This document shows, in pieces, positions 4,334-25,931 of a stretch of DNA of 64,000 nucleotides. The position numbers were made by a program, and so were the translations under genes. The stretch comes from an uncultured Candidatus Saccharibacteria bacterium (lineage in GTDB: Bacteria > Patescibacteriota > Minisyncoccia > Phycocordibacterales > UBA918): positions 74,441-138,440 of the forward strand of contig CAZWYM010000001.1 in assembly GCA_964638425.1 (NCBI GenBank). Direction: 5' to 3'. Positions within the stretch are counted from its first letter, which is position 1. The number at the start of each line of letters is the position of its first letter. The notes under the pieces were generated by a model. That model was not told where the DNA came from and made no database searches. It saw nothing but the letters and a program-made list of their open reading frames with translations.

Positions 4334-4552
4334 CTAGTCCGGAGTTTTTTCATCAAACTCCTTTTGCATTCGTTCCATCCATTGGACCTTGTTTTCACCT
4401 GTACGCTCTTCCATGCTCATAATACTCGCTTTGTGTGATTCATCAGACATCATGTGTGGCATGGCTTTCCCGACAATCTCCATGAGGGTATCGCCAGAAA
4501 ACTTCTCCGTGCAAACTCCTCCCAATTCCGTGCATATAAATGTTTTACTCAT
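4334..4552 (-). CDS. DUF1059 family small protein
   Basis: MSKTFICTELGGVCTEKFSG... N-terminus is typical of DUF1059. Confidence 0.55.
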   Translation of the reverse strand: MSKTFICTELGGVCTEKFSGDTLMEIVGKAMPHMMSDESHKASIMSMEERTGENKVQWMERMQKEFDEKTPD

Positions 4553-4572
4553 ACAGAAAGTATACCAAATCC

Positions 4573-5151
4573 TTAACGAGCTTCTCCTTCAAAATCAGGT
4601 TCAACAATTCCCCACCGCATACTCACTGGGTCAAGCTTTAAATATGCACTTTTGCCGACGGATGGTTGCGTCGTCATCGGTTCGCCATCTTCACGGACAG
4701 CATAATTAACGACTATCACATGTATATGACGAGGATTAGGACTCTGTGTAATATTCTGTGGCGCTACACGGTCCCCGAGCAGGTACCCATCCGAACCTGT
4801 ATATCCTTCCTCTGTATTGAGAGCAGCAACAGCATAAAACATGGTGCCGCTTCCCCCTGTCTCCTGTGTAAGCAAAAAAACGACATCCTCACGACCATCG
4901 CCATTTAAGTCGATAACTAAATCATTCCCAAAATACCGAGTCACTGTTTTTGAAGCTGAACCTGGGGCTATCTCCGTTTCTGCAAAGCCGTTGGTGAGGC
5001 GTACTTGTTCACCTTCTATTTCATATGCAATATTTTTATAATCAGACGGAAGGGCTACTGGTGCTTTAGGAGTGCTGTACTTCTGTACGATAAAAAAACT
5101 CATCGCTAGAATTACGACAATCCCTGAAATGAGATATCTTCTTTTTTCCAT
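4573..5151 (-). CDS. hypothetical membrane-anchored protein (FG-GAP-like DLNGDGREDVV motif)
   Basis: The track ORF extends to 5247. The internal Met (MEKRRYLISG...) at 5149-5151 is preceded by the same 20-nt leader found upstream of the DUF1059 gene, so this shorter start is preferred. Confidence 0.45.
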   Translation of the reverse strand: MEKRRYLISGIVVILAMSFFIVQKYSTPKAPVALPSDYKNIAYEIEGEQVRLTNGFAETEIAPGSASKTVTRYFGNDLVIDLNGDGREDVVFLLTQETGGSGTMFYAVAALNTEEGYTGSDGYLLGDRVAPQNITQSPNPRHIHVIVVNYAVREDGEPMTTQPSVGKSAYLKLDPVSMRWGIVEPDFEGEAR

Positions 5152-5265
5152 ACAGAAAGTATACCAAATGTGTAATTTTCCTTCTAATTTAGGGTCATTT
5201 CCATTGAAATAATTTGAACGAAACACGCAACAAACTTTTTCCTTCAATGTGTTGTTTTATACAGT

Positions 5266-5466
5266 ATGGAAAAAGTAACACTGAGATTATTTTGGACGTG
5301 TATGATTGCCTGTGCGAGTTGCGCAGTTATAGGGATATGGTTTGAAGAACGAGTCCCTGAAGCATTTTTTAAAGCTATGGCAACGCTCTTTATCATTGGC
5401 CTCGCAAACTTTCTCGTTTGGGCGCCTATGATGGTGTACCGGTTTCTGAATAAACAGCCACACTAG
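5266..5466 (+). CDS. small two-TM membrane protein (hypothetical)
   Basis: 66-aa ORF with two hydrophobic helices, in an otherwise gene-free gap. Confidence 0.3.
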   Translation: MEKVTLRLFWTCMIACASCAVIGIWFEERVPEAFFKAMATLFIIGLANFLVWAPMMVYRFLNKQPH

Positions 5467-5503
5467 AAGAGATGGTGCATGGTACTTTTTAGTTTTAGGG
5501 ATA

Positions 5504-5911
5504 CTACTTCTCGGACTTACTACGGGGTAACGAATCACCCGTTCGTAAAATCTTTTCCATTGTCTTCCCTTTTGCGAGTTCATCTATGAGCTTGTCCAGA
5601 TAGCGAACTTCACGCATAAGGGGCTCTGTAACTTCTTCCACACGGACTCCGCAAACTACACCGGTTATTAACGTTCGCAGTGGGTTCATTCGTGGCGCCT
5701 CGTCAAAAAATGTTTCGAAGGTGACCTGCTTCTTTATTTGTTTCTCGAGCGCTTTTTGGGTATACCCCGTTAGCCAACATATGATTTTATCAACTTCTTT
5801 TTTCGTACGTCCTTTCTTCTCCCCCTTAGCAACATACAAAGGATACACACTCCCAAATATCATCGCATATACTCTTTTTATTGATGCTGGGTTTTCTGTT
5901 TTCATATTCAC
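5504..5911 (-). CDS. DUF2200 family protein
   Basis: Motif [32 protein letters not shown] is characteristic of DUF2200. Confidence 0.6.
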
Positions 5912-5942
5912 AATGCTATCACGACCTACTCTTCCCCTAAAA

Positions 5943-5996
5943 ACTACCGAATGGTTGCGCCGGGGATTTCCTTGAGGTACTGCTCCGTAGCGAGCA
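5943..5996. repeat. degenerate direct repeat, a copy of the 3' end of the gene at 7194..7748; left boundary of the fic cassette
   Basis: About 53 bp, ~5 mismatches and 1 indel versus 7193..7245. Confidence 0.7.
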
Positions 5997-6015
5997 ACTA
6001 CGCCACTCGTGTGTA

Positions 6016-7086
6016 CTAACTTAACAATTTGAGCAATGCCTGATTGGCAAAGAAGTGGTTTCGACCGACTTTCATTGAACGTAGGACCCCCGCTTCAGAA
6101 AGTTGCAGCAAGTACTTGCTCGCTGTGGTGTAGTGAATGTTAATTTCATTTGCCAGCTTGGTAGGAGTAATGACTGGGTACGAGAAAAGTGCTTCTAGCA
6201 AGTCAGCTGAATAAATCTTAGTGTGGTTGGTCTTAATGTTTTGTCGAAGCTCATGATGAAGTCCTACAATAGCATTGAGTGTCTCTTTGGTTTCTTTGGC
6301 TTGCAAATAAAAACCTTGAAGCATGAAGGCAATATATTCTTCCCAAGCACCTCCTGAAGTGACCGCTCGAAGTAATCGATAATATTCAGCACGATTCTTA
6401 TTAATGTAGCCACTGATAAAAATAATAGGTAGGTCGAGTACTCCATCCTTAACAAGTTCAAGGACCATCAAAATACGACCAGTACGTCCGTTACCATCGA
6501 GGAAGGGGTGGATTGATTCAAACTGTTGATGTGCTATTGCTGCCCGAATGAGTGGATCAATATCCGTATTTTCATTTACAAAATGCTCCCAATTACCAAT
6601 GAGTTCAGGGATTCTGTTTTGCAAAGGCGGTGTGTAGAGTATCTCACCAGTAGTTGAGTTGGCGATGTGATTTTGTTCACGACGATACATACCACCACCG
6701 GTGAGCATAAGTTGTTCGTGAACGCCCAAAATTGTGCGGTTACTGATACCAATGTCAGGCATGTTCTTCATCCCCCAAAATAGGGCCTGTTGATACTTAA
6801 GTACTTCTTTGTTTGGCTTACTCTGCTCATCTGCAGGTAAAAGCTGATTTTCGAGAACATTCGCAACTGTGGTATTGATATTCTCAATGCCTGAAGACTC
6901 GACTGATTCTTTAATGAGTAGCGGTGAAGTAAGTAAAAGTGGGTTCGGAATCTGTCCAGAAGCACCCTTGAGTTCTGCTAATTCCACTCGGGCCTTAAGC
7001 AACAATTCTGAAAAAACCTTATAATCTATGGTTTTTTCAGGTGGAAGCATGGCCAAATCAATTGGATATATTGGATTAAATGACAT
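6016..7086 (-). CDS. fic: Fic/DOC family protein (putative AMPylator) with C-terminal wHTH
   Basis: Canonical Fic motif [12 protein letters not shown]. Confidence 0.85.
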
Positions 7087-7192
7087 ATTGCTACCAATAT
7101 ATCAGTTTTTTTGATTTTTTACCATATATTGAGGTGGGTATGTTACTTTCACCTATGTAAGGCTATCAAGACCAACTCTTTGCACTTTAAAG

Positions 7193-7245
7193 ACTACCAA
7201 ATGGTTGCTCCGTGGATTCCCTTGAGGTACTGCTCGTAGCGAGCA
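7193..7245. repeat. direct repeat, the authentic 3' end of the 7194..7748 CDS; right boundary of the fic cassette
   Basis: Matches 5943..5996. Confidence 0.7.
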
Positions 7246-7748
7246 TCGGCAAGGCGGAGTTTGTAGTGTATGCGGGTGATGACGATTGCGTATGTCTTGC
7301 CGAACGTACCGCGGATGGTGGAGCGTATCTCAAACGAAGCTGTTTTACCTGCGGGTATTTTTGCATAGTGCACTGTACCGACGGTAACTTGCAGTACCCC
7401 TTCTCCACGAACGCGCACATCAGCAGTAGCAATCCTCCCTTCTGCAGTTCCCTCAATCTGGTACATGAAGCCCGCTACCTTCTTCCCCGAAGCAATGGAG
7501 ATAGGAATGAATACATCTCCGTCCTTTGCGGTAATCTCTATCTCAAGGTACGACGTTCCAACGAGGGTGTCGACTGCATCTTTCTGCTTCACCCGTTCTG
7601 CGCGTCCTTGATTCTTTTTTACCTTTACACCAATGAAAGGATCCTTCCCTTCCAGTTTATTCGCCTCTATTAATTCACTCTGGAGTACTTTGAGCTTCGC
7701 GTTTAAATCCTTCACTAGCTTTTTAGTATCACTTGGTACTTTTTTCAT
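7194..7748 (-). CDS. hypothetical protein
   Basis: 184-aa ORF; no recognised motif. Confidence 0.5.
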   Translation of the reverse strand: MKKVPSDTKKLVKDLNAKLKVLQSELIEANKLEGKDPFIGVKVKKNQGRAERVKQKDAVDTLVGTSYLEIEITAKDGDVFIPISIASGKKVAGFMYQIEGTAEGRIATADVRVRGEGVLQVTVGTVHYAKIPAGKTASFEIRSTIRGTFGKTYAIVITRIHYKLRLADARYEQYLKGIHGATIW

Positions 7749-7993
7749 ACTGTAATTATAGAATATGAAAAGTCCCCTTCATGCATGCTGTGGGAATAAG
7801 GTTAGGTTGGTGAGAGTCGAGCTACGGTATATTTGAACCAGAGTGTCATCTTCTACATACCGAGTTCCATACCACGACAACGCTCCACGGTATGGCGGTC
7901 GTAGAGGTCGATGTAGTACTGCTTGTCTTTGAGGTGGGTTATCACCTCAATATTTTATTCCTCTTTTAAGATATTTCCAGTTGCTGAAAATAT

Positions 7994-8563
7994 CTACTGA
8001 TACACGCACAAGCTATTGAATATAGGGTACAACACCTCAAATAACTGACCAAGGATGAGTCCCATAAACGATGCGTACAGAACTAGAATTATATACGAGT
8101 CCTTACCTTCATTTGCATTGCGAAATGATTGTAGAACTCCTACTTTATCAAACTCACGCTTTGCATTAGGATCACCAAAAAGTTCTCGATACAAACGCAC
8201 TCCGAAGGTAACACCAATGAAAATAATACTGATACCAATCAAACTTTGTAGAGAATCATCTGCAACTCTCTTGCTGATATCTAGCGCGCAATACGACTGA
8301 GCAATAAAGAGAATAAGGGATAATCCTGCTCCAATCACCATCAACGATCTGAACACTGCCAGAGCTGCTAGGGACCACGTAAACAAGGAAATGAACGCGA
8401 GTCCGATCAGAGAAAAGGTAAGAAAGATTGTGCTCACCTGCTTTTCCCAGTGAGCGAATGCAAATGAAGTTAGTATTACTGTGACTACGTATAGGACAAA
8501 CAGTACAGTAAATTTTCTGTCAGTCTTCATTCTGTGCAGTATGTATTTTATCTTCTTCAGCAT
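7994..8563 (-). CDS. 5-TM membrane protein; paralogue of 21695..22243
   Basis: Start codon is 2 nt after the KAP NTPase stop. Shares IAQSYCALD / MAQTYCDLQ and C-terminal SLCVYQ / GLCMY with the other paralogue. Confidence 0.5.
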   Translation of the reverse strand: MLKKIKYILHRMKTDRKFTVLFVLYVVTVILTSFAFAHWEKQVSTIFLTFSLIGLAFISLFTWSLAALAVFRSLMVIGAGLSLILFIAQSYCALDISKRVADDSLQSLIGISIIFIGVTFGVRLYRELFGDPNAKREFDKVGVLQSFRNANEGKDSYIILVLYASFMGLILGQLFEVLYPIFNSLCVYQ

Positions 8564-8565
8564 AA

Positions 8566-11500
8566 TTAAGATTCATTCTTCTCCGTCACATTATGAGATT
8601 CTACCTTTTCCCAATAACTTTTTTCAGTCGCACTAATCCTTCCATCAGGTTTTAGTTGCAATAGAAAATCAACAACTGATTTCTTCCCCCCGTTACTCCA
8701 CGAATCTAGGGCAGAAGCAACGTCTTCGTAGTCCTTCTGATATTGACTGAAGGACGGCTTCAACGTTAGTAAATTACTAAATGCCAAATCCAAAACTTCC
8801 TGAGAGTGACCATCTCTGATCATACAAAACAAGCTGAAAATATAATCCTTTTGCAGAGTCTCTTGTAACTCAGAGAAAAATCCAGTAACTACTTTAAGCG
8901 CAGAGGAATTTACTGTAGCTAAAACTTTACCTGGTTGTCTCAAAAATTCTAATGTTGACTTAACTATTTCTCTCTTCTTTTCTATGCTCAAAAAGTCTGC
9001 TTTTTCAAAGAAAAAATGCCCTACTTCGGATGTTTCAAGACTATCCTGGTTAAGTAATTCGATTACTTGCTTTGACACTAACTCCTTTATTGCAACATCA
9101 TTGTTTTTATTAATCTTGTCGGCAACAAAGTCATACATCTTCCTTCTACCCGCAATCCCAATAGTCGGAGCCTTGTTCAGTATTTTTTCAACTATTTCTG
9201 CCCTTGCATAATCTTTAGGCTTCAATGTAGCAATAAATTCTATCGCCTGAAGAGGATCTTGGGCAATTAGTACATCAAGTATTTGAAGTCTAGTTTCATC
9301 AGAAGAAAAATCATATATCACCTTAGTAAAATCTGGTTGTGACAAAACTCTTGGTTGAATGTTTGGTAAAAATTCGGTCACTAATGTTTGAGCATAAGTG
9401 ATTTTCCAAAACGTGAAGAACTCACGGACCGCAACCGCATTAGCATTTTGTAAAAACTGTACAAATAGTTGTTGCGCTTCGGTTTTCTGTGGATCAACAA
9501 GACTACTTCTTAGATAAATAAGTATAAGAGATAGGGTCTTACGCTTTTCCCATAAAGGAATCGCGTTGAAGGTTTGAACTATGTTTTTTATAAAATCAAC
9601 CTTATCTGCGGGCAAAAGTAATTTCAAATCTACTCTGAAAGTAACCAGCAAACCGAGAGCTTCCTTAAAGAATTGTTCTTTTTCTTCAGTAAAACCTGAA
9701 ACTGCTTGATTGTGTGCAATAGTAATTTCAGTAAGTTTTTTGAAGAGTTGAGGAAAGACTTTCTTCTCTATTACCATATCACTCAGGTCAGTCAACAAAG
9801 CTTTCTTTGTACCAAAGTTTTCTAGTGAAGCTGTTTCAACAATCCGTTCAATACTTTTTTTCGTAAGAAACTTGCTTTTATCATCGATTCCAACAAAAAG
9901 ATTCAAGATGTCGTCTCTTACGGAGTAATGTTCCTCAATAGCTTGTGCAATATTCAAAACATGTTCATTTGTTAGTAACTGCTTTTGCTTTACTAGGTTT
10001 TGCAAAATGCTCTTAACAATTGCTATTTCGTTAAAATTTTTAAACTCTTCGGTTGCAGAAAGTGCCAGAACATAACGGTCAAGAATATTCTTTCTAATAC
10101 GAGAATCAAGATTGGGATCCGCAACTACAAAATCAAAAATCACATCAGTTGGCAACTTCTGAAAAGAAGGCCAAACTTTACCATCAAGTAAGCCCGCGAC
10201 AGTATTTATATAATCTCTACTAGTCAGATTTAGCTCACCAAGAACAGTTAACTGAGTTTTAAAAATGGTTGTAACTACATCAATTCCGTGATTTTTATAC
10301 TTGTTGAGGATTGAAATAATGAACTCAAGCAAAGTTGCCTTGTCTGTTTCTGCCTCTATATGAGTTTTTGCCGTAGTTTCATTTCCTTCTATGAGAGAAA
10401 GCCTGATGGACTCATCATCTGTAAGAAGGTCGGAGATAACAGGTTTCTTTAGGTATATAAATGGTTCAGCATCCTCAACAGTGATTCGACTGGTCTCAAG
10501 CATGAAATTCTCAAACTCCTCACGAAAAGGCGGTTCTTCTGCAACCACTACTTTCCTATACGTACCAAGTATCTCTTCAGGTGCATACCAAGATTTTTTC
10601 AAGTTTTGAAATGCCTCGGGGTACTTATGCATTAGCACAAGTACTTTTGCCATATATGCAATATTATTAGAAACAATATCCTTAACCTCAGTATTGAAGG
10701 CAACAAGAACTGCAGAAATTAAATTGTTAATAAATTGTTTTATCTCTCGAGGATTGTTAGAAAATGCAGACTCTATAACCAAGTACACATCATCATTTTC
10801 TAAATAATTTTTAATGTCTCCTGTTTGTTTGATCTGTTCTTTCACGAAAGTACGAATGTCGGTATCAATATATTCCGGAGTCCAAACAACAACATTGAAT
10901 ATCTTTCTTAAAAACTCGTCGGCTAACTCAGCGCTAGGAGCTGCCTTTTTAATTGCTTCAAAATCACATGGGACGAGAAAAACAACATTCTTACCTTTTG
11001 CGTCCACGTCTTTAATTTCAAGAAACGTTTTTAGAGTCGACAGGACTTCCGTAGCAACTTTAGAGTCAACACGGTCAAGATTGTCTATAACAACCACAAC
11101 TCTATTGGTCTTAATTTTTGATAACTTTAAAATCCGTACAAAAGATTTCTCAAATTGTTCGGGAGAACTTAACTGTGATTTTGAGGAAGTTATCGGAGAA
11201 ACCATAATAATCTTTTTGAAGTCCTCCCCAAGTACTTTCTCTATAATTAAAGCAATTGAAAGTGCCAACGAAAAACTTGTTCCGGCCCAAAGTTTCCATT
11301 GTGTGGCAAGATCAGGGAAGACTTGCCACGTAAACAGACCAATTATTATTAGGAACGGCAGCGACAAAATTGCCACCTTCTTCAAATAACCCCAGGAGAT
11401 GGATACCTTTTCGCCTACAGTTTCGCTCAGAGAAAAATAAAGTTCCTTCTCAAGCTTATCAATTTCATTTTTATTTACTTGCAAATCCTTTGCTATCTGC

Positions 11501-11781
11501 AGGAGCAACTGTCTTCTTAAAGAATCTTTTTCGTATTTCCAAGCATCAAATTCAACTATTGTTCCTCCCTCAATACCCTCATCTTTGAGTAACTTAACGA
11601 TTGTACTTTTTCCTGTACCCCATCGACCAAAGAGACCGATGGTATGAACACACGTGTCGCTTTCTAAAATAGATTTAAGTGCCGGTGCAACGCTCTTGTG
11701 GTAGAAATCAAAAAAGTTTTTAGACTCCTTACCAACAGGAGCATCCTTTAAAAAATTAAACTGTTTTGATTTGTTATCCAT
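8566..11781 (-). CDS. KAP family P-loop NTPase
   Basis: Walker A GRWGTGKST. Two TM helices inserted within the NTPase domain (LPFLIIIGLFTWQVF.../SFSLALSIALII), which is the hallmark of KAP NTPases. Walker B/DdLDR-like VVVIDNLDR. Long helical C-terminal region. 15 nt downstream of hsdR. Confidence 0.8.
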   Translation of the reverse strand: MDNKSKQFNFLKDAPVGKESKNFFDFYHKSVAPALKSILESDTCVHTIGLFGRWGTGKSTIVKLLKDEGIEGGTIVEFDAWKYEKDSLRRQLLLQIAKDLQVNKNEIDKLEKELYFSLSETVGEKVSISWGYLKKVAILSLPFLIIIGLFTWQVFPDLATQWKLWAGTSFSLALSIALIIEKVLGEDFKKIIMVSPITSSKSQLSSPEQFEKSFVRILKLSKIKTNRVVVVIDNLDRVDSKVATEVLSTLKTFLEIKDVDAKGKNVVFLVPCDFEAIKKAAPSAELADEFLRKIFNVVVWTPEYIDTDIRTFVKEQIKQTGDIKNYLENDDVYLVIESAFSNNPREIKQFINNLISAVLVAFNTEVKDIVSNNIAYMAKVLVLMHKYPEAFQNLKKSWYAPEEILGTYRKVVVAEEPPFREEFENFMLETSRITVEDAEPFIYLKKPVISDLLTDDESIRLSLIEGNETTAKTHIEAETDKATLLEFIISILNKYKNHGIDVVTTIFKTQLTVLGELNLTSRDYINTVAGLLDGKVWPSFQKLPTDVIFDFVVADPNLDSRIRKNILDRYVLALSATEEFKNFNEIAIVKSILQNLVKQKQLLTNEHVLNIAQAIEEHYSVRDDILNLFVGIDDKSKFLTKKSIERIVETASLENFGTKKALLTDLSDMVIEKKVFPQLFKKLTEITIAHNQAVSGFTEEKEQFFKEALGLLVTFRVDLKLLLPADKVDFIKNIVQTFNAIPLWEKRKTLSLILIYLRSSLVDPQKTEAQQLFVQFLQNANAVAVREFFTFWKITYAQTLVTEFLPNIQPRVLSQPDFTKVIYDFSSDETRLQILDVLIAQDPLQAIEFIATLKPKDYARAEIVEKILNKAPTIGIAGRRKMYDFVADKINKNNDVAIKELVSKQVIELLNQDSLETSEVGHFFFEKADFLSIEKKREIVKSTLEFLRQPGKVLATVNSSALKVVTGFFSELQETLQKDYIFSLFCMIRDGHSQEVLDLAFSNLLTLKPSFSQYQKDYEDVASALDSWSNGGKKSVVDFLLQLKPDGRISATEKSYWEKVESHNVTEKNES

Positions 11782-11796
11782 AATTAAATTTCGAAC

Positions 11797-14700
11797 TCAG
11801 ATATTTACCGTATACACGCTAGTCTTATTATCAACATAACTGTCGTAAACATGCGAATAGACCTTCTGAGTTTTATCTTCACAGTCTTCTTCTGTATAGG
11901 TAGGCTCAGGCAAGTTGTCATACAAAAGAGCGCGGATAGTGACCTTAACATCAGCACGAGTCTCTTCCTTTTTCTTCCAGTCGAGCGCAAGTTTCTCCAT
12001 ACGAAGCTTTATTACCAACTCCTTCGCAACCACTTTCACTTGATTTACTTCGTCTGGATTGAGGTTCTCTTTTTTGAGCAAGTCAAAAATAGCCAGCTCT
12101 TCCTCAGATAGGTTCTCTGCAATTGCACGACTATCTTCCTCGCTTAGATCCTTAGCGAGCTCTACGAGCTGGTCAAAGAACGACTCAAGATCATGCGAAC
12201 CAGCGTTGTATTCATGCAACAGTCGATTGAGGCGATCAAGGAATGCCTTGCGTAGCTTATTCTTTCGAACCATCTCTTTTATCTTCTCTTCCAATTCAGC
12301 ACTTAATTCCTCAGCTTCAATATTCTTCGTGTCTGAGTCATCAAAAAACTTCTTGAGTGCTTCAAAGTCTATCTTGCTTAGGTCTTTTAGGTTTGGTTTA
12401 TCTTTAATGACGTACTCACCGGCACGGATAGAACGGTCGAGCAGATCCTCAAGATCCTTCTTAACCTGAGACACGTCAGTCTCCTCGTCGATAACTTCAC
12501 GGATACGGGAAGCAATAACCTTATACGCAGTCACCTCGTGGTAGAAGTCTTCTGCCTTTGGTTCTGGGAGAACAGCTTTGTAGTATTTGAGTGCATCACC
12601 TGAAAGTTCGAGGTAGCGTTGCTTAGTTTGTTCATCGACAAGGATGCGGTTGGTAAATACGTCGACGAGACGGATCTTTTCAATATCCTTTGCTTCGAGT
12701 AAATCATTGATATTGAGGTCGAGCAACTTGAGGAATTGTCGAGTCTGAGAAACACTTGCAAAGAGGATTTCTACTAGCTCATCCTTATCTTTAATAATCT
12801 CGTCATCACCATCATTCGAGACAGCATAAATAGCGAGTGCTTTCTGGAGGTTTCGGAACACACCAATGTAGTCAACGATAAGACCGTTAGTCTTTCCCGG
12901 ATACACACGGTTTGCACGAGCGATAGTCTGCATGAGCGTATGGTTCTTGAGTGGCTTATCAAGATAGAGCGTTGAAAGGTTTGGCACGTCAAAACCAGTC
13001 ATCCACATAGCACATACGAAGACAATCTTGAGGTTATCGGTAGGCTCTTTGAATTTAGTTTCCAAGTCCTCGTCAATCATACGAGCACGGATCGGACGCA
13101 TATCGATGTCAAACTCCTTCATGTCATCAATTTCGTTCTGGCTTTGACTGACCACTACCGCCATATCAATGTCCTCGTATTTAGATATCTGCTCACGAAT
13201 AGACTCCTTTTCGTGTTCGTCTTTTGCTTTTGAGACAGCAATATTAAGCTTTGCAATGTACCGTTGCATTTGTTCTTTTACCTTCACGTACATGCGAATA
13301 GCTGTCTTCTTATCAATAGACACGACCATCGCTTTACCGTTGTATCCCCGTGAGGTAAAGTGCGTCACAATATCTTCCGCAACCTTATTGAGACGATCTT
13401 CACGAGAGATGAGGTGGTAGAAAGTTGAAAACTCCTGCTCAAGTTTATCCTCCTCATCAGAGGTAAGGTCGTAGTAATCCATTACCTTCTCAATATCCTT
13501 CTGGATATCAGTATTAGTATTCTGAAGTTTTGGAACACGGTTCTCATAGAAGAGCGGTACTGTCGCACCGTCCTCTACAGACTGTGCAAAATTGTATGTT
13601 GAAACATAGTCTCCAAAGGTTGAGCGGGTCTTTTCTTCACCATCCATAATTGGCGTACCAGTAAAGCCAATGAATGAAGCGTTCGGAAGTGCAATACGAA
13701 GGTTTTTTGCAAAAGTATCGTATTGGGTACGATGCGCTTCGTCAGCCATTACAATAATGTCATTTCGTAGATTGAGTTCAATGGGTTCGTTGAACTTCTG
13801 AATCAAAGTGAAGATATGGCGATGATCCTCAGCAAGTAGTTCTCGGAGATTTTGAACAGAATCTGCATGCACTTCTTTATCTTTCTCAGCTCCACAGTCA
13901 ACAAAGTTCTTGTATATCTGTTTATCAAGCTCACGACGGTCAGTAATCAGCACAAAAGTGAAGTTACCATGCATCTTTCTGAATACCTTCTGCGACAAGA
14001 AGAGCATTGAGTATGATTTTCCTGATCCTTGTGTGTGCCAGAACACCCCAAGACGACCTCCATTTTCTTCACGATGTTCAATACGCTGAAAAGCTTTATT
14101 GACCCCGAGGAACTGGAAGTATCGAGCAACAATTTTGGTGAGTTCGCCACGAGAGCCATCAAATAATGTGAAGTTCTCAACAATATCTAAAAGTCGTGAC
14201 GGCTCACACGTACCACGAAGTACAATGTCGAGACTTACGCCACCCTCTTCACTCTCGTCATTAATCTTCTTCCATTCATTAAAGTGCTCATAGGCAGAAG
14301 TAAGGGTACCCACCTTACTCTCAATACCATTTGAAATAATGATAAATGCGTTACACCAAAAAAGCTGAGGAATGGTGTCCTTATAGTCACGAATATTTTC
14401 TTGGTAGGCATTGCGGAGATTCTTGTGCGAAGCTTTCAATTCAATGAGCACTAACGGCAACCCATTTACAAAACCTATAAGATCAGGGCGACGCTTGTGG
14501 AGTTCGCCAGTGATCCACATTTGAGATACGAGAAGGTAGTCGTTTTTTGAGACATCATTAAAATCAACAACTTTGATATTGATGGTCTCTATCGCTCCAC
14601 GATCGTCACGGACCTCAACTTTGACACCATCTTTTATGAGTTTATAGATATCAGCATTCGCATTTACCAAACTCATTGATGAACGGTCACGAGTAAGCTC

Positions 14701-14922
14701 ATCAATAGCTTGAATAATGGCTTCTATTGGAGCATCAGGGTTAAGTCTCTCGAGAGAGGGCTTTAGGTACTTCGCCAAAATAACCTGCCCTTGATTATCA
14801 CGACCTAGGAGTGCGTCACCCTCATCAGAGTATCCATTAATAAAATTTTTAACACCCCAAAGTTCGCCAAAGATTTTGACAGCTGTTTGCTCTATGAGGT
14901 TGTCTTCTGAAAATTCGTTCAT
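11797..14922 (-). CDS. hsdR: type I restriction enzyme R subunit (HsdR)
   Basis: SF2 helicase motifs WHTQGSGKS and DEAHR; size 1041 aa; overlaps hsdS by 4 nt. Confidence 0.9.
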   Translation of the reverse strand: MNEFSEDNLIEQTAVKIFGELWGVKNFINGYSDEGDALLGRDNQGQVILAKYLKPSLERLNPDAPIEAIIQAIDELTRDRSSMSLVNANADIYKLIKDGVKVEVRDDRGAIETINIKVVDFNDVSKNDYLLVSQMWITGELHKRRPDLIGFVNGLPLVLIELKASHKNLRNAYQENIRDYKDTIPQLFWCNAFIIISNGIESKVGTLTSAYEHFNEWKKINDESEEGGVSLDIVLRGTCEPSRLLDIVENFTLFDGSRGELTKIVARYFQFLGVNKAFQRIEHREENGGRLGVFWHTQGSGKSYSMLFLSQKVFRKMHGNFTFVLITDRRELDKQIYKNFVDCGAEKDKEVHADSVQNLRELLAEDHRHIFTLIQKFNEPIELNLRNDIIVMADEAHRTQYDTFAKNLRIALPNASFIGFTGTPIMDGEEKTRSTFGDYVSTYNFAQSVEDGATVPLFYENRVPKLQNTNTDIQKDIEKVMDYYDLTSDEEDKLEQEFSTFYHLISREDRLNKVAEDIVTHFTSRGYNGKAMVVSIDKKTAIRMYVKVKEQMQRYIAKLNIAVSKAKDEHEKESIREQISKYEDIDMAVVVSQSQNEIDDMKEFDIDMRPIRARMIDEDLETKFKEPTDNLKIVFVCAMWMTGFDVPNLSTLYLDKPLKNHTLMQTIARANRVYPGKTNGLIVDYIGVFRNLQKALAIYAVSNDGDDEIIKDKDELVEILFASVSQTRQFLKLLDLNINDLLEAKDIEKIRLVDVFTNRILVDEQTKQRYLELSGDALKYYKAVLPEPKAEDFYHEVTAYKVIASRIREVIDEETDVSQVKKDLEDLLDRSIRAGEYVIKDKPNLKDLSKIDFEALKKFFDDSDTKNIEAEELSAELEEKIKEMVRKNKLRKAFLDRLNRLLHEYNAGSHDLESFFDQLVELAKDLSEEDSRAIAENLSEEELAIFDLLKKENLNPDEVNQVKVVAKELVIKLRMEKLALDWKKKEETRADVKVTIRALLYDNLPEPTYTEEDCEDKTQKVYSHVYDSYVDNKTSVYTVNI

Positions 14923-16100
14923 GATTTTATTTCTAATTTACCGGTGACCAACTGTGGAAGAATCAAGTCACGTGACTTGATCAGTATTTCGTTCTGTTTC
15001 TCAAGTTTATACTTTAAAACAATACATTCTCGCACCTCTCTACCAAATTTATCTGTAACTTCAACTGGCGGAACATTCAATTTCTTTGTCATAAATTCAG
15101 GCCAGTGTCCTTTGTAGTCGTTGAATGAGATTAAGTTTTTTGTTGCAAAATGCAACCAAAATACATTCCTATCATCTAATGGGAGAAAAGGTAAAACATT
15201 TTGTATTGCAGAAAATGCAAACATTATTAAATTTTGATAACAAGTATGATTCGCAAATACAATTATTGGATCGTCTGTCGAAGCTACAACACTCGGCTCA
15301 TCATTATGATAGCCAATTATCCCTGACCTACCTTGATCTAAAACTGGCACTTTACCTGTAGGTTTAACAGTTTTATTTTCGTATCTCCTGCCAGCTGAGA
15401 CTCTTTTAATCACATCTTCTACTCTCTTTACTTCCCAGCCATCAGGAAGACCATCATTCCCAAATCTTATTTTTTCAGACCCAGGAAAACGAAAATTTAC
15501 AAACCATTCAGTATAAATTTTTTGAGCTAGTGTCTCAAGAATGTAGATGCGACGTTTGTTGTTTTCAATTAAATCATCAAAAAGGGACAAAGTTGAAGCA
15601 ATTGCTTTTTGAGTCTTCAATGGAAGATAATCAACATTGAGATTTTCTAGTTCACTCCCTCTGATTCCAGCTGCAGCTACCTGCATCACCAGTGATTGGG
15701 TTTTAGCTTTTCCTCTAGGAGATGAAAAGTAATAGTAGAAGAAATCAGGGTTTGCAATATCTTTTTTTAATCGCACTCTTATAAGGTGCGACTCGAAGGT
15801 TGTCTGACGTGTTGTCCCTTTAAAAATTGAACATTTACCAGCGCCTTCTGCCACTAATGACTGTCTTGCAAAAAGTAGATCGCCATCCATAAGTAGACTG
15901 TTCGCTTGCTCCTTTAACGTTAACGGGGCAAGCTCCATCCCAATAGAATCGTATATCTTGTCATACTTAAAAATCTCACCCATATTCACCATAGGAAAAC
16001 CTGAGCCTCTTACTCTCTTCGGCTTACTCACGCCATTACGAGAGGGGATTTCGTAAAGATCACCGAATCGTATTTCTTTTGTTTCTTGATTGATCTGCAT
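14919..16100 (-). CDS. hsdS: type I RM specificity subunit (HsdS), two target-recognition domains
   Basis: Position between hsdM and hsdR; two-TRD architecture with conserved central and C-terminal helices. Confidence 0.8.
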   Translation of the reverse strand: MQINQETKEIRFGDLYEIPSRNGVSKPKRVRGSGFPMVNMGEIFKYDKIYDSIGMELAPLTLKEQANSLLMDGDLLFARQSLVAEGAGKCSIFKGTTRQTTFESHLIRVRLKKDIANPDFFYYYFSSPRGKAKTQSLVMQVAAAGIRGSELENLNVDYLPLKTQKAIASTLSLFDDLIENNKRRIYILETLAQKIYTEWFVNFRFPGSEKIRFGNDGLPDGWEVKRVEDVIKRVSAGRRYENKTVKPTGKVPVLDQGRSGIIGYHNDEPSVVASTDDPIIVFANHTCYQNLIMFAFSAIQNVLPFLPLDDRNVFWLHFATKNLISFNDYKGHWPEFMTKKLNVPPVEVTDKFGREVRECIVLKYKLEKQNEILIKSRDLILPQLVTGKLEIKS

Positions 16101-16104
16101 ATTA

Positions 16105-17640
16105 CTATTCTAATCCCAAGAGATTTCGAAAATTATTCAAAATACTCTTTTCAAGAGAACGTGCCTCAACAGTAAGTTTTTCAAACTCGGTGTAAAGCTC
16201 TCTTGCAGACGTTTCAAAATCCTCATCTGAAATATCCGATTCGACAGTTCCTACATATCGACCTGGATTTAGAGAGTAACCAGTATCGGCTACTTCTTGG
16301 ATTGTAACGACCTTACAAAACCCCTTTACGTCTTCATATTTAGCTAAAGTTTGCTCGCCACGATACCTTCGTACAACGTCAGTAATCTGCTGTATTTGTT
16401 CATCAGTCCATTCACGATGTGAACGATCGACTTGGGTGAAGGTATTTCGTGCATCAATGAAAAGAATTTTGTCTTTACGCTCAAGATACCTCTTACCTTT
16501 GTCGAGAAACCAGAGAGTTACAGGAAGAGTAACGTTATAAAACATGTTTGGACCAACAGAGACCATCACATCAACAACATTGTCATCAACAAGCTTCTTA
16601 CGAATTTCTTTTTCACTATTTCCAGCATCACTGGCAGAGTTTGCCATAACAAAACCTGCACGACCTCCATCTTTGAGAGCGTTCAGGAATATTTGTATCC
16701 AGAGATAGTTACCGTTATCTGTACGTGGGAGACCGTATGAAAATCGGGGATCATCTTTGATACGTTCTTTATCAATACCATCTACATTGAATGGTGGATT
16801 TGCCATTGCAAAATCAAACTTTCCGACAGAGCGGTGTAGATCTTCGTAGTAAGTGTTTCCCTGACGTATATCTCCAGAAAGACCATGAATAGCGAGGTTC
16901 ATCTTAGCAATACGAACTGTCTGATCAGTCTTTTCTTGCCCATAAATAGAAATCTCTCGTGAGGCTTTTTCTTTTTTTCCATTTTCAAGATGACGCTTAA
17001 TGAACTCAAGGGACTGCACAAACATACCTCCTGAACCACAAGCAGGATCGTATATCTTTCCTTGATAGGGTTCAAGAATTTCTACGATCAACTTTACAAT
17101 CGATGTCGGAGTAAAGAACTCTCCACCACCCGAACCGTCTGACAGCGCGAACTTGCCGAGAAAGTATTCGTAAATAAGACCGAATGCATCGCCTTCAATT
17201 GTGTCGGGGATATGATTTAGATTTTTGAGAAGCGTAACAATTGCAGAATTGTCGAGCAGGTTGTAATTTTTCGGAAGAATGCCTGCGAGGTCTTTGTTTG
17301 ATGTTTCAATTTCCTTCATTGCATCATTAACTGCCTTTCCCATATCCGTTCCTTCTGGAAGTGCAATGAGATACGAAAAACGAGCGTGCTCAGGAACGAA
17401 AAGCACAGCTCGTGATTGATAGTCCTCAGGAGTGATAGGTCTCTGACGTTTAGAAGTAGACGTCTTTGTCTCAGCTTCAATTTCTTTCTGTGCAACAGTG
17501 AATTTTACGTCAGCGAACTTGAGAAAAATAAGACCTAGAACTGGCTCAGCAAACTCGTTGAGACGCAAAGAAGAGTTGGCTCGAAGATGATCTGCCGCCT
17601 CCCATAGTTTACTCTCAAGTTGTTTGATGTCTGATGCCAT
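16105..17640 (-). CDS. hsdM: type I RM N6-adenine DNA methyltransferase (HsdM)
   Basis: HsdM N-terminal domain, SAM motif, and catalytic NPPF (ANPPFNVDG). Confidence 0.9.
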   Translation of the reverse strand: MASDIKQLESKLWEAADHLRANSSLRLNEFAEPVLGLIFLKFADVKFTVAQKEIEAETKTSTSKRQRPITPEDYQSRAVLFVPEHARFSYLIALPEGTDMGKAVNDAMKEIETSNKDLAGILPKNYNLLDNSAIVTLLKNLNHIPDTIEGDAFGLIYEYFLGKFALSDGSGGGEFFTPTSIVKLIVEILEPYQGKIYDPACGSGGMFVQSLEFIKRHLENGKKEKASREISIYGQEKTDQTVRIAKMNLAIHGLSGDIRQGNTYYEDLHRSVGKFDFAMANPPFNVDGIDKERIKDDPRFSYGLPRTDNGNYLWIQIFLNALKDGGRAGFVMANSASDAGNSEKEIRKKLVDDNVVDVMVSVGPNMFYNVTLPVTLWFLDKGKRYLERKDKILFIDARNTFTQVDRSHREWTDEQIQQITDVVRRYRGEQTLAKYEDVKGFCKVVTIQEVADTGYSLNPGRYVGTVESDISDEDFETSARELYTEFEKLTVEARSLEKSILNNFRNLLGLE

Positions 17641-20763: not shown

Positions 20764-21045
20764 TTACTTGGTTTCTCTGGGTTTTATTTTATAGGTAATG
20801 AAAGAAAACCAGATAGTATCACTTGCTTTTGCTCCGGTCAGTTTGGTAAACGAGAGTGGTGCTGGCATACCATGCGACGCTTTCTTTGAAAGCTCTTCTC
20901 CTATACATTCTTTATAATCTAAAGCTCCAAAACGCTTCCACACCTCCTCCGCCTCACGAGCCATCTTCTTGTACTTGGCGATGTTCTTTTTAGGAATAAC
21001 GAGTACAAACCCATCTACATATGTTGCAGTTTGCTTTTTTGTCAT
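20764..21045 (-). CDS. DUF1428 family protein
   Basis: ATYVDGFVLVIPKKNIAKYKKMA...FGALDYKEC matches the DUF1428 pattern. The upstream extension to 21141 is probably not translated. Confidence 0.55.
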   Translation of the reverse strand: MTKKQTATYVDGFVLVIPKKNIAKYKKMAREAEEVWKRFGALDYKECIGEELSKKASHGMPAPLSFTKLTGAKASDTIWFSFITYKIKPRETK

Positions 21046-21694
21046 ATCCTTAAATGATAGCAGATCTGTGTTTAAAAGTGAGTTGCGTTTCTCCAGAGCG
21101 CTGCCAGACTTGGAATCTCTCTCATTACATGAGCAGTACACCTTGTCGATATTTTGTTTCCTTACATCACAAAATATCTGGCAAGGTCTTCGAGGTCAGG
21201 GACTCGTCCCGCTTTTTCTAGTTCACTTCGTTCACAAGAACGCTGGACGCGGCTCGCTGTTTCGTCGCAAGCTCCTCATATCGCTCCGCCGTTCGAGTCC
21301 CTGACTGGCTAGCAACGACAAAGGCCACAGACGTATTCACGTTTGTGGCCTGTCGATTGCTGCCAGTCAGGGACTCGAAGCTTACAGCTTCAGTTCAGGT
21401 TGTATGATATTTTCTTTCAGAAAATCTCGACAACCTCCTTAAAAGTCTCCCAGACTTTTAAGCCCCAATAAAATGCGAATGAGGCGTGTCCTAGAGCCGA
21501 ATGAGTGAGTGTGAAAGAAAATGTGTTGAGTTTCCACAGAGCGCTGGCCGTCTCGGGCTAGAACCGTAGGTGACCAAGCCCAGCTTGACGGAATCAGCTC
21601 ATTTTACACTACCTTACCGACGCGTCTCGTGCATCTCAAAAAGTGACAAAAGTGACACGGAACAGCCTGTAATAGTTACAGTCATCTGTAACTA

Positions 21695-22243
21695 TTAGTA
21701 CATACAAAGACCCGAAATAATTGGCGTTAGTACTCTATAAATACAAATAAGGTAGAACAAAACAAAGAGAATATATGCAATTATGGTCAATCTGCTTTCC
21801 CATGATGAGCCACCTTTCTCAAACCGCTTCCTATGCTCTTTGTATGCCTCCTGAAATTTTGTAATGAAATCGTAGGAGATAAAGACGAGTCCTGTACCCC
21901 ACAAGAACGTGAGGGCTTGGAGTCCTTCAGGTGTTTGGCTTTGGAGATCACAATATGTCTGTGCCATAAAAATGAGCACACCAAATCCAACGCTTGCATG
22001 TAGTAAGGCTTTGTATACTGCATAGCCAGATACAAGCATGATGACAGTGAGGACAAATCCAATGGAAGAAACAGCGACAATAGAAAGACCAGAAAGAAGT
22101 TGGTGATTGAAGTAGTTGTTGTCAGCAAATATCAGAGCAGTAAAAAGAACCGCAAAGATGAGCGGTACTAATTTCTCCTTATTAAACCCAAGTTTCATAA
22201 GTCCAACTATACGCCCACAATACGAGTCTGCAACTATACCCAT
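21695..22243 (-). CDS. 5-TM membrane protein; paralogue of 7994..8563; last gene of the LexA-TIR-caspase operon
   Basis: Overlaps the upstream gene by 10 nt; shares conserved blocks with 7994..8563. Confidence 0.5.
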   Translation of the reverse strand: MGIVADSYCGRIVGLMKLGFNKEKLVPLIFAVLFTALIFADNNYFNHQLLSGLSIVAVSSIGFVLTVIMLVSGYAVYKALLHASVGFGVLIFMAQTYCDLQSQTPEGLQALTFLWGTGLVFISYDFITKFQEAYKEHRKRFEKGGSSWESRLTIIAYILFVLFYLICIYRVLTPIISGLCMY

Positions 22244-22932
22244 TCTTCGGCCCGAGCATATTCAATCCTTGTTTTTGCGCCATCGAGTATCTTGTCATCG
22301 AGGGAGACTAGCGGTGGTTTCCCTCTCGCTGAGTACTCCAAGGTCTTGAATAGGTACCCCAGAAACGATCCTGTGTATCTACAGCACCGAATGCAACATC
22401 GTATTTTGTCGGGCACCTCGTCCTCATATCCTTTCCAACGATACATTTGTGGGTAACGATCTATCCAGTCGTCAGTAATGAATGTCACCCACTTTATAAG
22501 TTCCTCTTGAGCGCAGACGTTACCCCTTTGACCCAATCGCACCAAACGAATCACCATGCGATCTTGAATGTGTTTGTCGCGGTCATCTGCTGGCGAAAGA
22601 AAAACATACAATTTCTCTTTATATCTCTCAAGGATCAAGTCAACTTCTGTCTGACGTCGGTACGGTCGTGCCTGTTTATATCGATAGCGAATCCATCTTT
22701 TTTGATACTCACGGGAAATGTGACGAGTTAAAGAGTCCCAATCAATACTATTGTTTTCGTTACGTAAGTTCTGTCGTGCATATTGGTACACAGGTTTTGC
22801 ATGTATAAAAATCCACGAGCTAGTGAGTGCCGGTGGTTGCTTCTCGTCAAGAGCCTGATTAAGTAATGCAATAGCGGTACAAAAATCCATAAGTGCCCAT
22901 TTGGGACACTTATATTTTACCTTCTGAAACAA
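22234..22932 (-). CDS. hypothetical protein with CCxRCC cysteine cluster
   Basis: 232-aa ORF overlapping the caspase-like gene by 23 nt; contains DKIRCCIRCCRYTG; no recognised fold. Confidence 0.45.
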   Translation of the reverse strand: MFQKVKYKCPKWALMDFCTAIALLNQALDEKQPPALTSSWIFIHAKPVYQYARQNLRNENNSIDWDSLTRHISREYQKRWIRYRYKQARPYRRQTEVDLILERYKEKLYVFLSPADDRDKHIQDRMVIRLVRLGQRGNVCAQEELIKWVTFITDDWIDRYPQMYRWKGYEDEVPDKIRCCIRCCRYTGSFLGYLFKTLEYSARGKPPLVSLDDKILDGAKTRIEYARAEEWV

Positions 22933-23857
22933 GTCTCCAATAGTGGTATCCGAGAGCCGTTAACTTACAGGATTTTGAGTTTTGAGCTGCGTAATACATG
23001 TGTTCTTCCCCGACAGGGACAACTAGTCCAATGCTCACAAATTTCTGTAAATTTTTAAGGACAGCAACCTTTTCAGGTATGGCAATATCTTTATTATCAA
23101 ACTCATACGTAGGGTCTAATGCGTATTCTTGTTCAGGCGTTGGAAAATACTCTGTTATTTTTCTAAGCGTCTCTGTAGGAACAGGAGGATTTATAGTTCT
23201 CAATGAAGTGAATCTAGTTACATTAGTCTTAAAGACTGGACGTTGATCCCAAGGACCAAGCGCTTGATCAATGTAAGCATAAACACTTCCAGGAGTTATA
23301 TGACCCCTTAAGTCGGCGGCACCTCCTTGCAATGCATCAATAAGCAAACTAGTAAAAATTCCATGACCATTAATCTCCAAAGCAACTTCGCTATCACGAC
23401 TGGCAGTTAGAACAACTACACCTTCAATAATTTGAGTTGTCGGTGCGGTAGTTCCTGTAGTGACAGGTGAACCAAATGAACCTGAATGACAACAGTCAAG
23501 AATGATTATCTTGTCCTTTGATTTAGATTGGTTTGCAATAGTAAGAATTTGATCCATCGAAACACCCTCATCATTTAGTTTGTAATCTGGGGTTACTAAG
23601 TAACCACCAAGAGTGTTCAGGTACCCATGACCTGAAAAATATAAGAGGGCAATATCGCTATCGCCAGCAAAAAGCTCTTTAATCGCCGTCATAAGATCAG
23701 ATTTTGTTGGAACATCAGTCTCAAGTCTGACATCGAAGTTAGGTGATCCATCACCATTCTTGCTGATAGTATTTGCAAAAGCTGAAGCGTCATTAATGCA
23801 CCCTGTTAGAGGCGATTGTGGGTAGTTATTAATCCCAACTACAAGCGCTTTTCTCAT
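22910..23857 (-). CDS. caspase-like peptidase C14 (metacaspase/orthocaspase-like) with a C-terminal domain of unknown function
   Basis: KALVVGINNY...L.GCINDA start; catalytic His in YFSGHG; catalytic Cys in IILDCCHSG. Confidence 0.8.
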   Translation of the reverse strand: MRKALVVGINNYPQSPLTGCINDASAFANTISKNGDGSPNFDVRLETDVPTKSDLMTAIKELFAGDSDIALLYFSGHGYLNTLGGYLVTPDYKLNDEGVSMDQILTIANQSKSKDKIIILDCCHSGSFGSPVTTGTTAPTTQIIEGVVVLTASRDSEVALEINGHGIFTSLLIDALQGGAADLRGHITPGSVYAYIDQALGPWDQRPVFKTNVTRFTSLRTINPPVPTETLRKITEYFPTPEQEYALDPTYEFDNKDIAIPEKVAVLKNLQKFVSIGLVVPVGEEHMYYAAQNSKSCKLTALGYHYWRLVSEGKI

Positions 23858-23858
23858 A

Positions 23859-24230
23859 CTACAGTTTGTTGATGAATGACTTTATATTGTCCCAATTCCA
23901 AACATTAACAAGACGACCATTCAAAGAAGATGGAAGCATAGGTCTATCTGAACCTGTATACATAAGCATTACTGGTACTTTTTCTTCGTTCGCAGTCTTA
24001 ATTTCATACAATTCACCAGTCGCCCGTGGTGTGTTGTTACTGATAAGCGCAATCATTCCGTCACAACCCTTAATTTTTGTTCGACATTTAGACTCCCAAT
24101 CTGTTTCCCACGGTGTTTTTACGGACATATCTACAAACTCAAATGGTGAGTTGTCATTTTTTGCTTGACCTACAAGAAAGTCACGGAACTTTTTGTCTTC
24201 AACAGCGAATGCAATAAATATTCTTTTCAT
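23859..24230 (-). CDS. TIR-like domain protein (DUF1863/MTH538-like)
   Basis: RIFIAFAVEDKKF...MIALISNNTPRATGELYEIKTANEEKVPVMLMY follows the DUF1863 TIR-like pattern. Confidence 0.6.
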   Translation of the reverse strand: MKRIFIAFAVEDKKFRDFLVGQAKNDNSPFEFVDMSVKTPWETDWESKCRTKIKGCDGMIALISNNTPRATGELYEIKTANEEKVPVMLMYTGSDRPMLPSSLNGRLVNVWNWDNIKSFINKL

Positions 24231-24251
24231 AATATGTTGTGGTTAAATCAA

Positions 24252-24491
24252 TTAATGTTTTGTATCTTTCGGTGGGTTTGGGTCCTTGCCGTAACTATCC
24301 TTGTCGGTAATCGTTCCGTCTCTTTTATGTATCACATGCTCAACTTGTCTAGACCTCGCCTCTTTTATTGATTTATCAATGGCCGTTTCTTTGGTATGAG
24401 AACTTACGACCGGTTTCGATTGATTTTCGACTTTGGTTTCCCACATACTTCTATCCTTATTGTATACGGTATGAATATTTCTTTTGGTCAT
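24252..24491 (-). CDS. DUF2188 family small protein
   Basis: ...VIHKRDGTITDKDSYGKDPNPPKDTKH C-terminus is characteristic. The track ORF extends to 24548; the Met at 24491 is preferred. Confidence 0.6.
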   Translation of the reverse strand: MTKRNIHTVYNKDRSMWETKVENQSKPVVSSHTKETAIDKSIKEARSRQVEHVIHKRDGTITDKDSYGKDPNPPKDTKH

Positions 24492-24496
24492 AATAT

Positions 24497-25114
24497 TTAA
24501 TACAGATCTGATGGAAGTATCGCAACAACAACTCCTTGGATCTGACAATTATCGGTTAATATGATTGGTCTATACGTTTTATTGGATGATTTTGGTCTTA
24601 GGATCACCGCACCATCAGCTCTTTCAAAGTATTTGAGAGTTGTCTCATCATTGATGAGGGCAACAACTTTATCTCCAGTCTCTGCTGACTCTTGCTGTCG
24701 AATGAGTAGAAGGTCACCACTATTGATACCAGCAAGATTCATCGAGTCGCCCATAGCACGCAAAAGAAAATAAGTAGAACCACTTCTCGCCATCTCAGTT
24801 GAGACTGGAATGTAGTCTAAAATATTTTCCTCGGCTAGCATTGGAGTACCACACGTCACTGCACCTACTAGGGGTACGTCAATCGTGTTAACTGAATTAT
24901 TGAGCCTCGGGGATGTTAAGACGAGACTTCGCCCGCTTCGCTTCACAAGTCCTGCTTTTTCTAAGCGATCAATTACTAGACTGGCTGATCGGGGTGATTT
25001 ACCGCCAGTAACCTCATTGATCTCCTGTAGGGTAGGGCTTTTGCCATACGTAGTAATCTTGTTGCGGATAAGTCCAAGGGCTTTCTTGTCTTTGTCACTG
25101 AGATTATTTATCAT
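24497..25114 (-). CDS. lexA: LexA repressor (wHTH + S24 peptidase)
   Basis: N-terminus ALGLIRNKITTYGKSPTLQEINEVTG...PRSASLVIDRLEKAGLV is LexA-like. S24 Ser-Lys dyad (GDSM, TTLKYF). Confidence 0.8.
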   Translation of the reverse strand: MINNLSDKDKKALGLIRNKITTYGKSPTLQEINEVTGGKSPRSASLVIDRLEKAGLVKRSGRSLVLTSPRLNNSVNTIDVPLVGAVTCGTPMLAEENILDYIPVSTEMARSGSTYFLLRAMGDSMNLAGINSGDLLLIRQQESAETGDKVVALINDETTLKYFERADGAVILRPKSSNKTYRPIILTDNCQIQGVVVAILPSDLY

Positions 25115-25174
25115 GGTATAAATAGTATAACAAATGCTATACAATCCAGCAAACAGTGCTAAAATTAGGATACT

Positions 25175-25843: not shown

Positions 25844-25872
25844 GTGGACATCAAGGTGAGTGGATAATACAG

Positions 25873-25905: not shown

Positions 25906-25931
25906 TATCGACTCCATCTGGTGTCTATTAC

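Follow-up and report, generated by a model that had tools for sequence, protein, structure and literature searches.

A duplicated gene end flanking a SoFic gene in a Patescibacteria defense-gene slot, possibly the scar of two merged slot versions

The window examined here, by which we mean the whole 64-kb stretch of DNA that was analyzed (64,000 nucleotides), contains a conserved gene of the Patescibacteria, termed X, that is followed on the minus strand by a fic gene and then by an incomplete second copy of its own 3′ end. Read along that strand, the order is X (7748-7194), a 35-nt spacer, an upstream element of fic (7160-7087), fic itself (7086-6016), 19 nt (6015-5997), the X remnant, here called X′ (5996-5943), a 31-nt spacer, and a DUF2200 gene from 5905. 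As the original prediction had it, fic is the only gene between the two copies, together with its conserved upstream element of ~75 nt.

Gene X (7194-7748, minus strand), the source of the repeat, encodes a conserved Patescibacteria protein of ~184 to 186 residues. We identified 354 homologs at E ≤ 1e-3, the closest non-identical ones being ~60 to 70% identical and the nearest 70%. A Pfam scan of X returned no domain. Its AlphaFold model (pLDDT 86) features an N-terminal helix and a β-sandwich, for which a fold search against the PDB gave no informative match (TM ≤ 0.29). In the 245-nt gap between X and the membrane-protein gene upstream of it lies a short, protein-like open frame on the minus strand (7856-7954), reading (N)IEVITHLKDKQYYIDLYDRHTVERCRGMELGM to its stop codon. 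This frame has no Pfam match and no counterpart in ~90 related loci, and may represent either a small gene or what is left of one.

Directly upstream of X, positions 7994-17640 hold genes for a 189-aa membrane protein and a 1071-aa KAP-family P-loop NTPase with weak PADLOC similarity to QatA/PifA, followed by a complete type I restriction-modification (R-M) operon (hsdM, hsdS, hsdR). In two related loci (L064 and L066), the position directly upstream of X is instead occupied by the DUF1428 gene found at 20764-21141 of the window, and much of the region from 7.8 to 20.7 kb may accordingly be inserted defense DNA. A second island, at ~21700-31830, ends in a large serine recombinase (30354-31826) and encodes a caspase-like peptidase, a TIR-like (ThsB-like) protein, a LexA/S24-type repressor, an N6/N4 DNA methyltransferase, an AlpA-like HTH protein, a DEAD-type helicase, and a staphylococcal-nuclease-like protein. 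Most likely this is either an integrated element in decay or a defense island. The 189-aa membrane protein (7994-8563) and a 182-aa protein (21695-22243) are distant paralogs (25% over ~110 aa by tblastn), and both genes lie at edges of these putative islands. We also considered whether X had been split by the large serine-recombinase element; this was rejected, as tblastn detected no X 5′ fragment elsewhere in the window, including at the end of the island.

The fic gene (6016-7086, minus strand) encodes a 356-aa SoFic-type class II Fic AMP-transferase with Fic_N, Fic, and winged-helix SoFic-like_C domains in Pfam. Its product matches the PADLOC SoFic model, which has 361 positions, over residues 13-355 with an E value of 4.8e-104. 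Examination of the translation reveals both the canonical HPFx(D/E)GNGRxxR catalytic motif and the N-terminal inhibitory SSGIEN. Judged by these features, the predicted product is a full-length SoFic-type defense protein, and the PADLOC match lends support to a reading of fic as defense-type cargo.

Upstream of fic, a segment at 7087-7160 (minus strand) is conserved in seven fic loci of differing context. Some 65 to 75 nt upstream of SoFic are kept in the window and in L028, L029, L030, L096, L099, and L100, even inside R-M operons. Two boxes of the TGATATAT type occur in the element, one at ~7124-7146 and one at 7096-7104. The latter can be read as an extended −10 (TGATATATT) that ends 9 nt short of the fic ATG; in all seven loci compared, AAAAACTGATA.ATT is invariant ~9 nt before the ATG. 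This conservation suggests that the element may comprise the promoter and operator of the gene, and it looks like a gene-owned promoter/operator, not an att arm. The C-terminal winged helix of SoFic is perhaps what binds it.

On the other side of fic, the DUF2200 gene (5504-5911, minus strand) matches Pfam PF09966 with an E value of 7e-53 and is called at a length of 119 aa. Its start is probably the ATG at 5905 rather than the 5863 chosen by the gene callers, and its homologs, 70 to 84% identical, are spread over many phyla. A promoter-like sequence, TGATAGCAT, lies at 5913-5921 within copy A of the repeat, 7 nt before the ATG at 5905, and the same layout of −10 box, 6 to 7 nt, and ATG also precedes X and the genes p224 and s72. 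We infer that TGATAGCAT is the DUF2200 promoter. The X′ remnant is non-coding and has plausibly been kept as promoter context for DUF2200. A scan of 5400-7900 found no terminators, promoter-like matches in that same interval were not above shuffle expectation, and an Rfam search of 5200-8100 returned no RNA family.

An extended −10-like TGnTAnnnT (for example TGGTATACT, TCTATAAT, and TGCTATAAT) occurs 6 to 7 nt before the ATG of many genes, which show no obvious ribosome-binding site. Such boxes are found in the window at 4543-4570, 5142-5169, 7739-7766, and 5913-5921, as well as at 7795-7815 of L019 and 6482-6502 of L021, and this arrangement suggests leaderless or near-leaderless transcripts in these Patescibacteria. 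A degenerate extended −10-like sequence, TGATAGCCT, is also present at 7160-7168, in the downstream part of copy B. In addition, 5880-5911 and 7128-7161 are identical at 19 of 33 positions, with GTGAA..CCA.C.TCAATA in the same order in the DUF2200 start and the distal part of the fic upstream element. This likeness may be fortuitous, may reflect a promoter architecture common to both, or may be an old relic. We did not count it as an extension of the repeat into the 5′ end of DUF2200, since the copy B part belongs to the upstream element of all fic loci.

Gapped self-blastn of the window aligns 5912-5996 with 7159-7245 as a direct repeat of 88 columns at 83% identity (E 8e-20 / 5e-19, or ~1e-19), and a separate repeat search returned 5938-5985 versus 7188-7235 at 90% identity and a spacing of 1250 nt. 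Self-comparison found no third copy in the 64-kb window. The repeat consists of the last 52 nt of X plus ~32 nt past the stop codon and is thus longer than originally claimed. Copy B (7159-7245, minus strand) comprises the functional last 52 nt of X including the stop (7194-7245) and the following 35 nt (7159-7193). Copy A comprises X′ (5943-5996, minus strand), a truncated and frameshifted copy of those 52 nt, and, by sequence alignment, a post-stop segment (5912-5942, minus strand). Past the stop codon, copy A extends as far as the start region of DUF2200, and copy B as far as the conserved element upstream of fic. Over the coding part, 5943-5996 differs from 7194-7245 by four substitutions, one fewer than the approximately five first reported, and by the predicted 1-nt insertion, which does break the frame. 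Copy A consequently translates as ARY(+1) plus 13 residues, where the C terminus of X reads ARYEQYLKGIHGATIW before its stop.

Could the similarity be fortuitous, or the arrangement an assembly chimera of two strain variants? The window does come from metagenome-assembled sequence (source samples with runs SRR12762296 and SRR12762285), which would allow for a chimera; the same arrangement, however, is recovered with 100% identity on contigs from at least two separate sequencing runs, and the longest identical run between the copies is 16 bases, too short to mislead k-mer assemblers. As to chance, the local alignment score of 59 stands ~35 sd above that of shuffled sequences (n = 200; 12.2 ± 1.3, maximum 16), in keeping with the E value. 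We therefore give both of these explanations a next to negligible probability. Because the copies are only 83% identical and share no more than 16 identical bases in a row, excision of the cassette by homologous recombination also appears unlikely.

The similarity to X ends sharply at 5996/5997. A novel joint would thus be located within the 19-nt spacer (5997-6015, minus strand) that runs from the fic stop codon to the start of X′. These 19 nt match neither the sequence 3′ of DUF2200 nor the sequence 3′ of fic in L028-L031. Copies A and B are each other's closest relatives, scoring 57 against each other and at most 31 against any of ~80 other X 3′ ends (at most 22 for the remnant), and both encode a GATI(W/R) tail directly before the stop that occurs in no other family member examined. 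This mutual closeness and lineage-specific tail indicate that the second copy derives from this same genome or from that of a very close relative.

Such a sister relationship would also be expected if everything had happened in place within one genome, either by a short tandem duplication of the X end and spacer followed by insertion of fic between the two, or by a deletion that left just the last 52 nt of a second X paralog formerly upstream of DUF2200. Tandem duplications mediated by microhomology are frequent in bacteria, and the similarity does extend into non-coding sequence past the stop. Yet an in-place origin would require that two separate events struck the same few bases, and none of the ~90 X-bearing loci examined has an X paralog (no locus gave two tblastn matches). 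The pattern of change also speaks against it. When the four substitutions are polarized with outgroups, functional copy B has a derived G (in KGI) and probably a derived W, whereas remnant copy A has a derived P and the frameshift, so the functional copy carries as many derived changes as the remnant. Apart from the frameshift, the residues of copy A (E and P) are all seen in functional X proteins. With so few changes to go by, the polarity would fit two once-functional alleles slightly better than duplication in place and decay of A, and we consider the in-place scenarios improbable.

The original prediction took the bracketing of fic to be the classic footprint of site-specific integration into the 3′ end of X. 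Under this explanation, fic would be a small cassette using the X 3′ end as its attachment site, the repeats would be attL and attR, and a tyrosine integrase would have acted in trans, possibly from a gene beyond the 64 kb, or have since been lost. The anatomy offers it real support, in that direct repeats derived from the X 3′ end bracket a single accessory gene while X itself remains intact. The repeat runs from inside X to the exact edge of the conserved fic unit, just as an attL/attR pair would appear, and the high conservation of X is a trait that many integration targets have. Against it, no tyrosine integrase (Phage_integrase) turned up when essentially all window ORFs of 120 aa or longer were searched with Pfam, neither within or next to the putative element nor anywhere else in the 64 kb. 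The sole recombinase is the large serine recombinase 23 kb from fic, which belongs to a separate island, and large serine recombinases are not known to leave ~85-bp repeats. Two other classes of mobile element were rejected. For a transposon or insertion sequence there is no transposase domain in Pfam and there are no terminal inverted repeats at the cassette ends, and the duplication measures ~85 bp, where transposon target-site duplications are usually under 15 bp. For an integron gene cassette there is no IntI-type integrase in the window, and the repeats derive from coding sequence, not from an imperfect-palindrome attC.

Relatives of the fic gene weigh against an attachment site as well. 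The closest homologs (L028-L031; 85 to 89% identical in amino acid sequence) share DNA homology with the window that begins at 7141-7159 and stops at the fic stop codon; their flanking genes are different, and no direct repeats beyond chance surround them. Farther homologs, 73 to 74% identical, lie within R-M loci or beside methyltransferases, as in L100, where the order is hsdM-SMODS-SLATT-hsdS-fic-hsdR. The nearest fic units (73 to 89%) thus reside at unrelated sites, R-M operons included, without flanking repeats, and relatives of neither fic nor X were found on viral contigs. On a Paceibacterota contig (L096/L097, 2597-5074), a SoFic homolog that is 73% identical is divergent to a second Fic gene with a DIP2311-like C-terminal domain, another sign of Fic gene clustering in these genomes.

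We compared 26 genome loci and 62 metagenome loci that contain X. The genes that follow X differ from locus to locus, with ~170 clusters of genes within 3.5 kb downstream of X across 62 loci, among them a MazG-like protein with a Schlafen-type helicase and CsoR with a copper ATPase. In two loci (L082 and L092), X and a DUF1294 gene are just 4 nt apart, leaving an empty slot, whereas elsewhere the interval between these genes is occupied by a Fic (L059), RhuM (L021), an Mrr-type nuclease (L081), or Fic, a RhuM fragment, and Abi_2 together (L019). The region 3′ of X is a variable defense-gene hot spot. Its far side is marked, judging from sequence similarity, by a gene for a 66-aa small membrane protein, which in the window (5266-5466, plus strand) is convergent with DUF2200 and of which copies 62 to 71% identical occur 0.3 to 3.5 kb downstream of X in six loci (L003, L007, L010, L013, L014, and L015). 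In L003, we detected no fic or DUF2200 homolog between X and this gene.

Neither the adjacency of X and DUF2200 nor the gene order 3′ of X is conserved in relatives. No locus was found in which X adjoins DUF2200 without fic; DUF2200 occurs near X only in L042, where it is convergent, and in L008, where it is 3 kb away. SoFic directly 3′ of X without the repeat was seen in none of 62 loci. One contig, L095, was considered as an empty site and rejected, being 100% identical to window positions 5390-6523. Screening the 83 X loci with an intact 3′ end, 59 of which have at least 1.5 kb of downstream sequence, revealed a direct duplicate of the X 3′ end in only three: the window, L019, and L021. The duplicates begin 52 nt (window), 83 nt (L019), and ~31 to 72 nt before the X stop, so that even the three cases have unlike breakpoints and the locus provides no recurrent site with a common crossover core, a further point against integration at an attachment site.

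The two other cases, together with a third contig, offer an independent parallel in which the course of events can be followed. L019, L021, and L059 are related Kaiserbacteria-type contigs, L019 being from a Kaiserbacteria MAG. In L059, X is followed by a different Fic gene (Fic292, PADLOC PDC-S04) and DUF1294. In L021, X is followed by 42 nt from the region upstream of Fic292, then by a decayed X′ remnant, RhuM at full length (PDC-S05), and DUF1294. L019 combines the two: X is followed by Fic292 and the initial ~77 nt of DUF1294, then by the terminal 83 nt of X (at 80% identity with the resident X end), a RhuM fragment, Abi_2, and complete DUF1294. Over its left part, which runs through Fic292 into the DUF1294 fragment, L019 is colinear with L059 (6651-7715 versus 4727-5792, 81%); over its right part, which begins with the remnant and enters RhuM, it is colinear with L021 (7769-8114 versus 6456-6801, 82%). 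The joint between the two parts lies within an imperfect microhomology of ~10 nt, AAC(G/T)ACAAAC, that is present in both DUF1294 and X. On this comparison L019 is a duplication junction of the form A-B′-(C5′|A3′)-B″-C, in which two slot fillings have been stacked by illegitimate recombination, and both of the unmerged parental arrangements exist in the sister contigs L059 and L021.

Several smaller observations concern these contigs. The Fic292 upstream region (L021 6354-6502; L019 6640-6745) contains several CGTTAAT/ATTAACG boxes, and L021, where Fic292 is missing although the X′ remnant and the first 42 nt of this region are retained, looks as if it lost the Fic gene by a later deletion. 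The remnants of L019 and L021 have a derived base in common (GTAAAG, versus GTGAAG in all three X genes), suggesting that the scar is old or that it moved together with RhuM.

For the interpretation of the window, L019 is informative in three ways. Its Fic gene adjoining X, the second such case, is also trailed by an X 3′ remnant, as might be expected of an attachment site. An attachment site nevertheless leaves both the DUF1294 5′ fragment and the microhomology unexplained, which points instead to illegitimate recombination between two variants of the locus. Finally, L019 clearly merges two different arrangements, which argues against an origin of the window's repeat in place. What stands of the original proposal is the presence of an accessory fic insertion beside a conserved gene and bracketed by that gene's 3′ end; the mechanism it proposed is not supported, and we regard site-specific integration of a fic cassette as rather unlikely. 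The more specific idea that the X 3′ end is a genuine attachment site for tiny, integrase-less, single-gene defense cassettes mobilized in trans, by a recombinase whose gene is elsewhere, seems to us highly doubtful. If true, this reading, with SoFic as cargo here and the PDC-S04 Fic in L019, would imply a cassette system, resembling integrons or satellites, that is confined to these reduced genomes.

We favor, with a probability of roughly 0.5, the explanation that the repeat is the scar of a homology-anchored illegitimate recombination that merged an X-fic and an X-DUF2200 arrangement within the defense hot spot. The slot 3′ of X holds different accessory or defense genes in different strains. 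One version would have consisted of X, a short spacer, and SoFic, and another, in the same lineage, of X, a spacer, and DUF2200. DNA of one version would then have recombined into the other, with one end anchored by homology in X and the other formed by an illegitimate joint that lay ~52 nt ahead of the stop codon in the resident X and probably made use of a short microhomology of a few bases. The same result could be reached by homology-facilitated illegitimate recombination following uptake of DNA, by unequal crossing-over, or by a Campbell-type insertion of a circularized fragment, and none of these routes would call for a dedicated integrase or attachment site. The outcome would be a complete X, SoFic with its own promoter/operator, a truncated X 3′ end with the DUF2200 promoter region, and DUF2200, and the remnant would probably persist as the supplier of promoter context for DUF2200.

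That the mechanism seen in L019 also lies behind the structure of the window we infer by analogy. The different breakpoints of the two loci (52 versus 83 nt) are what would be expected of illegitimate joints. Unlike in L019, no fragment of a downstream core gene abuts the window remnant. The nearest X is, moreover, only 70% identical, and all contigs with X, Fic, or DUF2200 identical to those of the window carry its filled, merged arrangement, none of them a parental one.

The proposed merger resembles several known phenomena. Homology-facilitated illegitimate recombination has been described for naturally transformable bacteria, and the window is similar in that it is continuous with X on one side and has a novel joint, arbitrarily placed, on the other; the usual outcome of that process is deletion of recipient DNA, however, whereas the window shows a duplication. 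L019 is comparable to microhomology duplication junctions, having its joint in ~10 nt and fragments of both flanking genes duplicated. With tyrosine-integrase islands and prophages the window shares a target 3′ end on both sides of accessory DNA and an intact target. It differs from them in that the "element" is a single 1.1-kb gene with no integrase, that this cargo is absent from the site elsewhere, that the breakpoints are not conserved, and that the L019 joint holds a fragment of the downstream gene.

As in defense hot spots between core genes, where recombination in the flanks exchanges the contents of variable slots, X and a downstream core neighbor bracket SoFic, PDC-S04 Fic, RhuM/PDC-S05, Abi_2, Mrr, and MazG with a Schlafen-like helicase, and some slots are empty. 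The present case differs in lying in Patescibacteria, with X as a novel anchor gene, and in that the window keeps the scar of two tandem-stacked alleles. The fic gene itself is similar to SoFic and R-M-associated Fic genes in its full-length PADLOC match and motifs and in having homologs between hsdS and hsdR or beside methyltransferases, and the window has a type I R-M operon of its own 4.7 kb away. It differs in that the KAP NTPase, the membrane protein, and X intervene between fic and the R-M genes. Literature searches found nothing specific to this arrangement. We regard the locus as a new instance of known phenomena, with no new mechanism and with a cargo of a known defense gene type.

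Hot spots of this kind are little described in the Patescibacteria, and gene X with the slot downstream of it is a useful landmark for defense-gene discovery in the phylum. For annotation, the locus illustrates that gene-end fragments are not automatically attachment sites of integrative elements. Imprecise recombination between slot variants can stack cargoes and leave such fragments behind as scars, and the ultra-small genomes of Patescibacteria, with few mobile elements, can still shuffle and accumulate defense genes.
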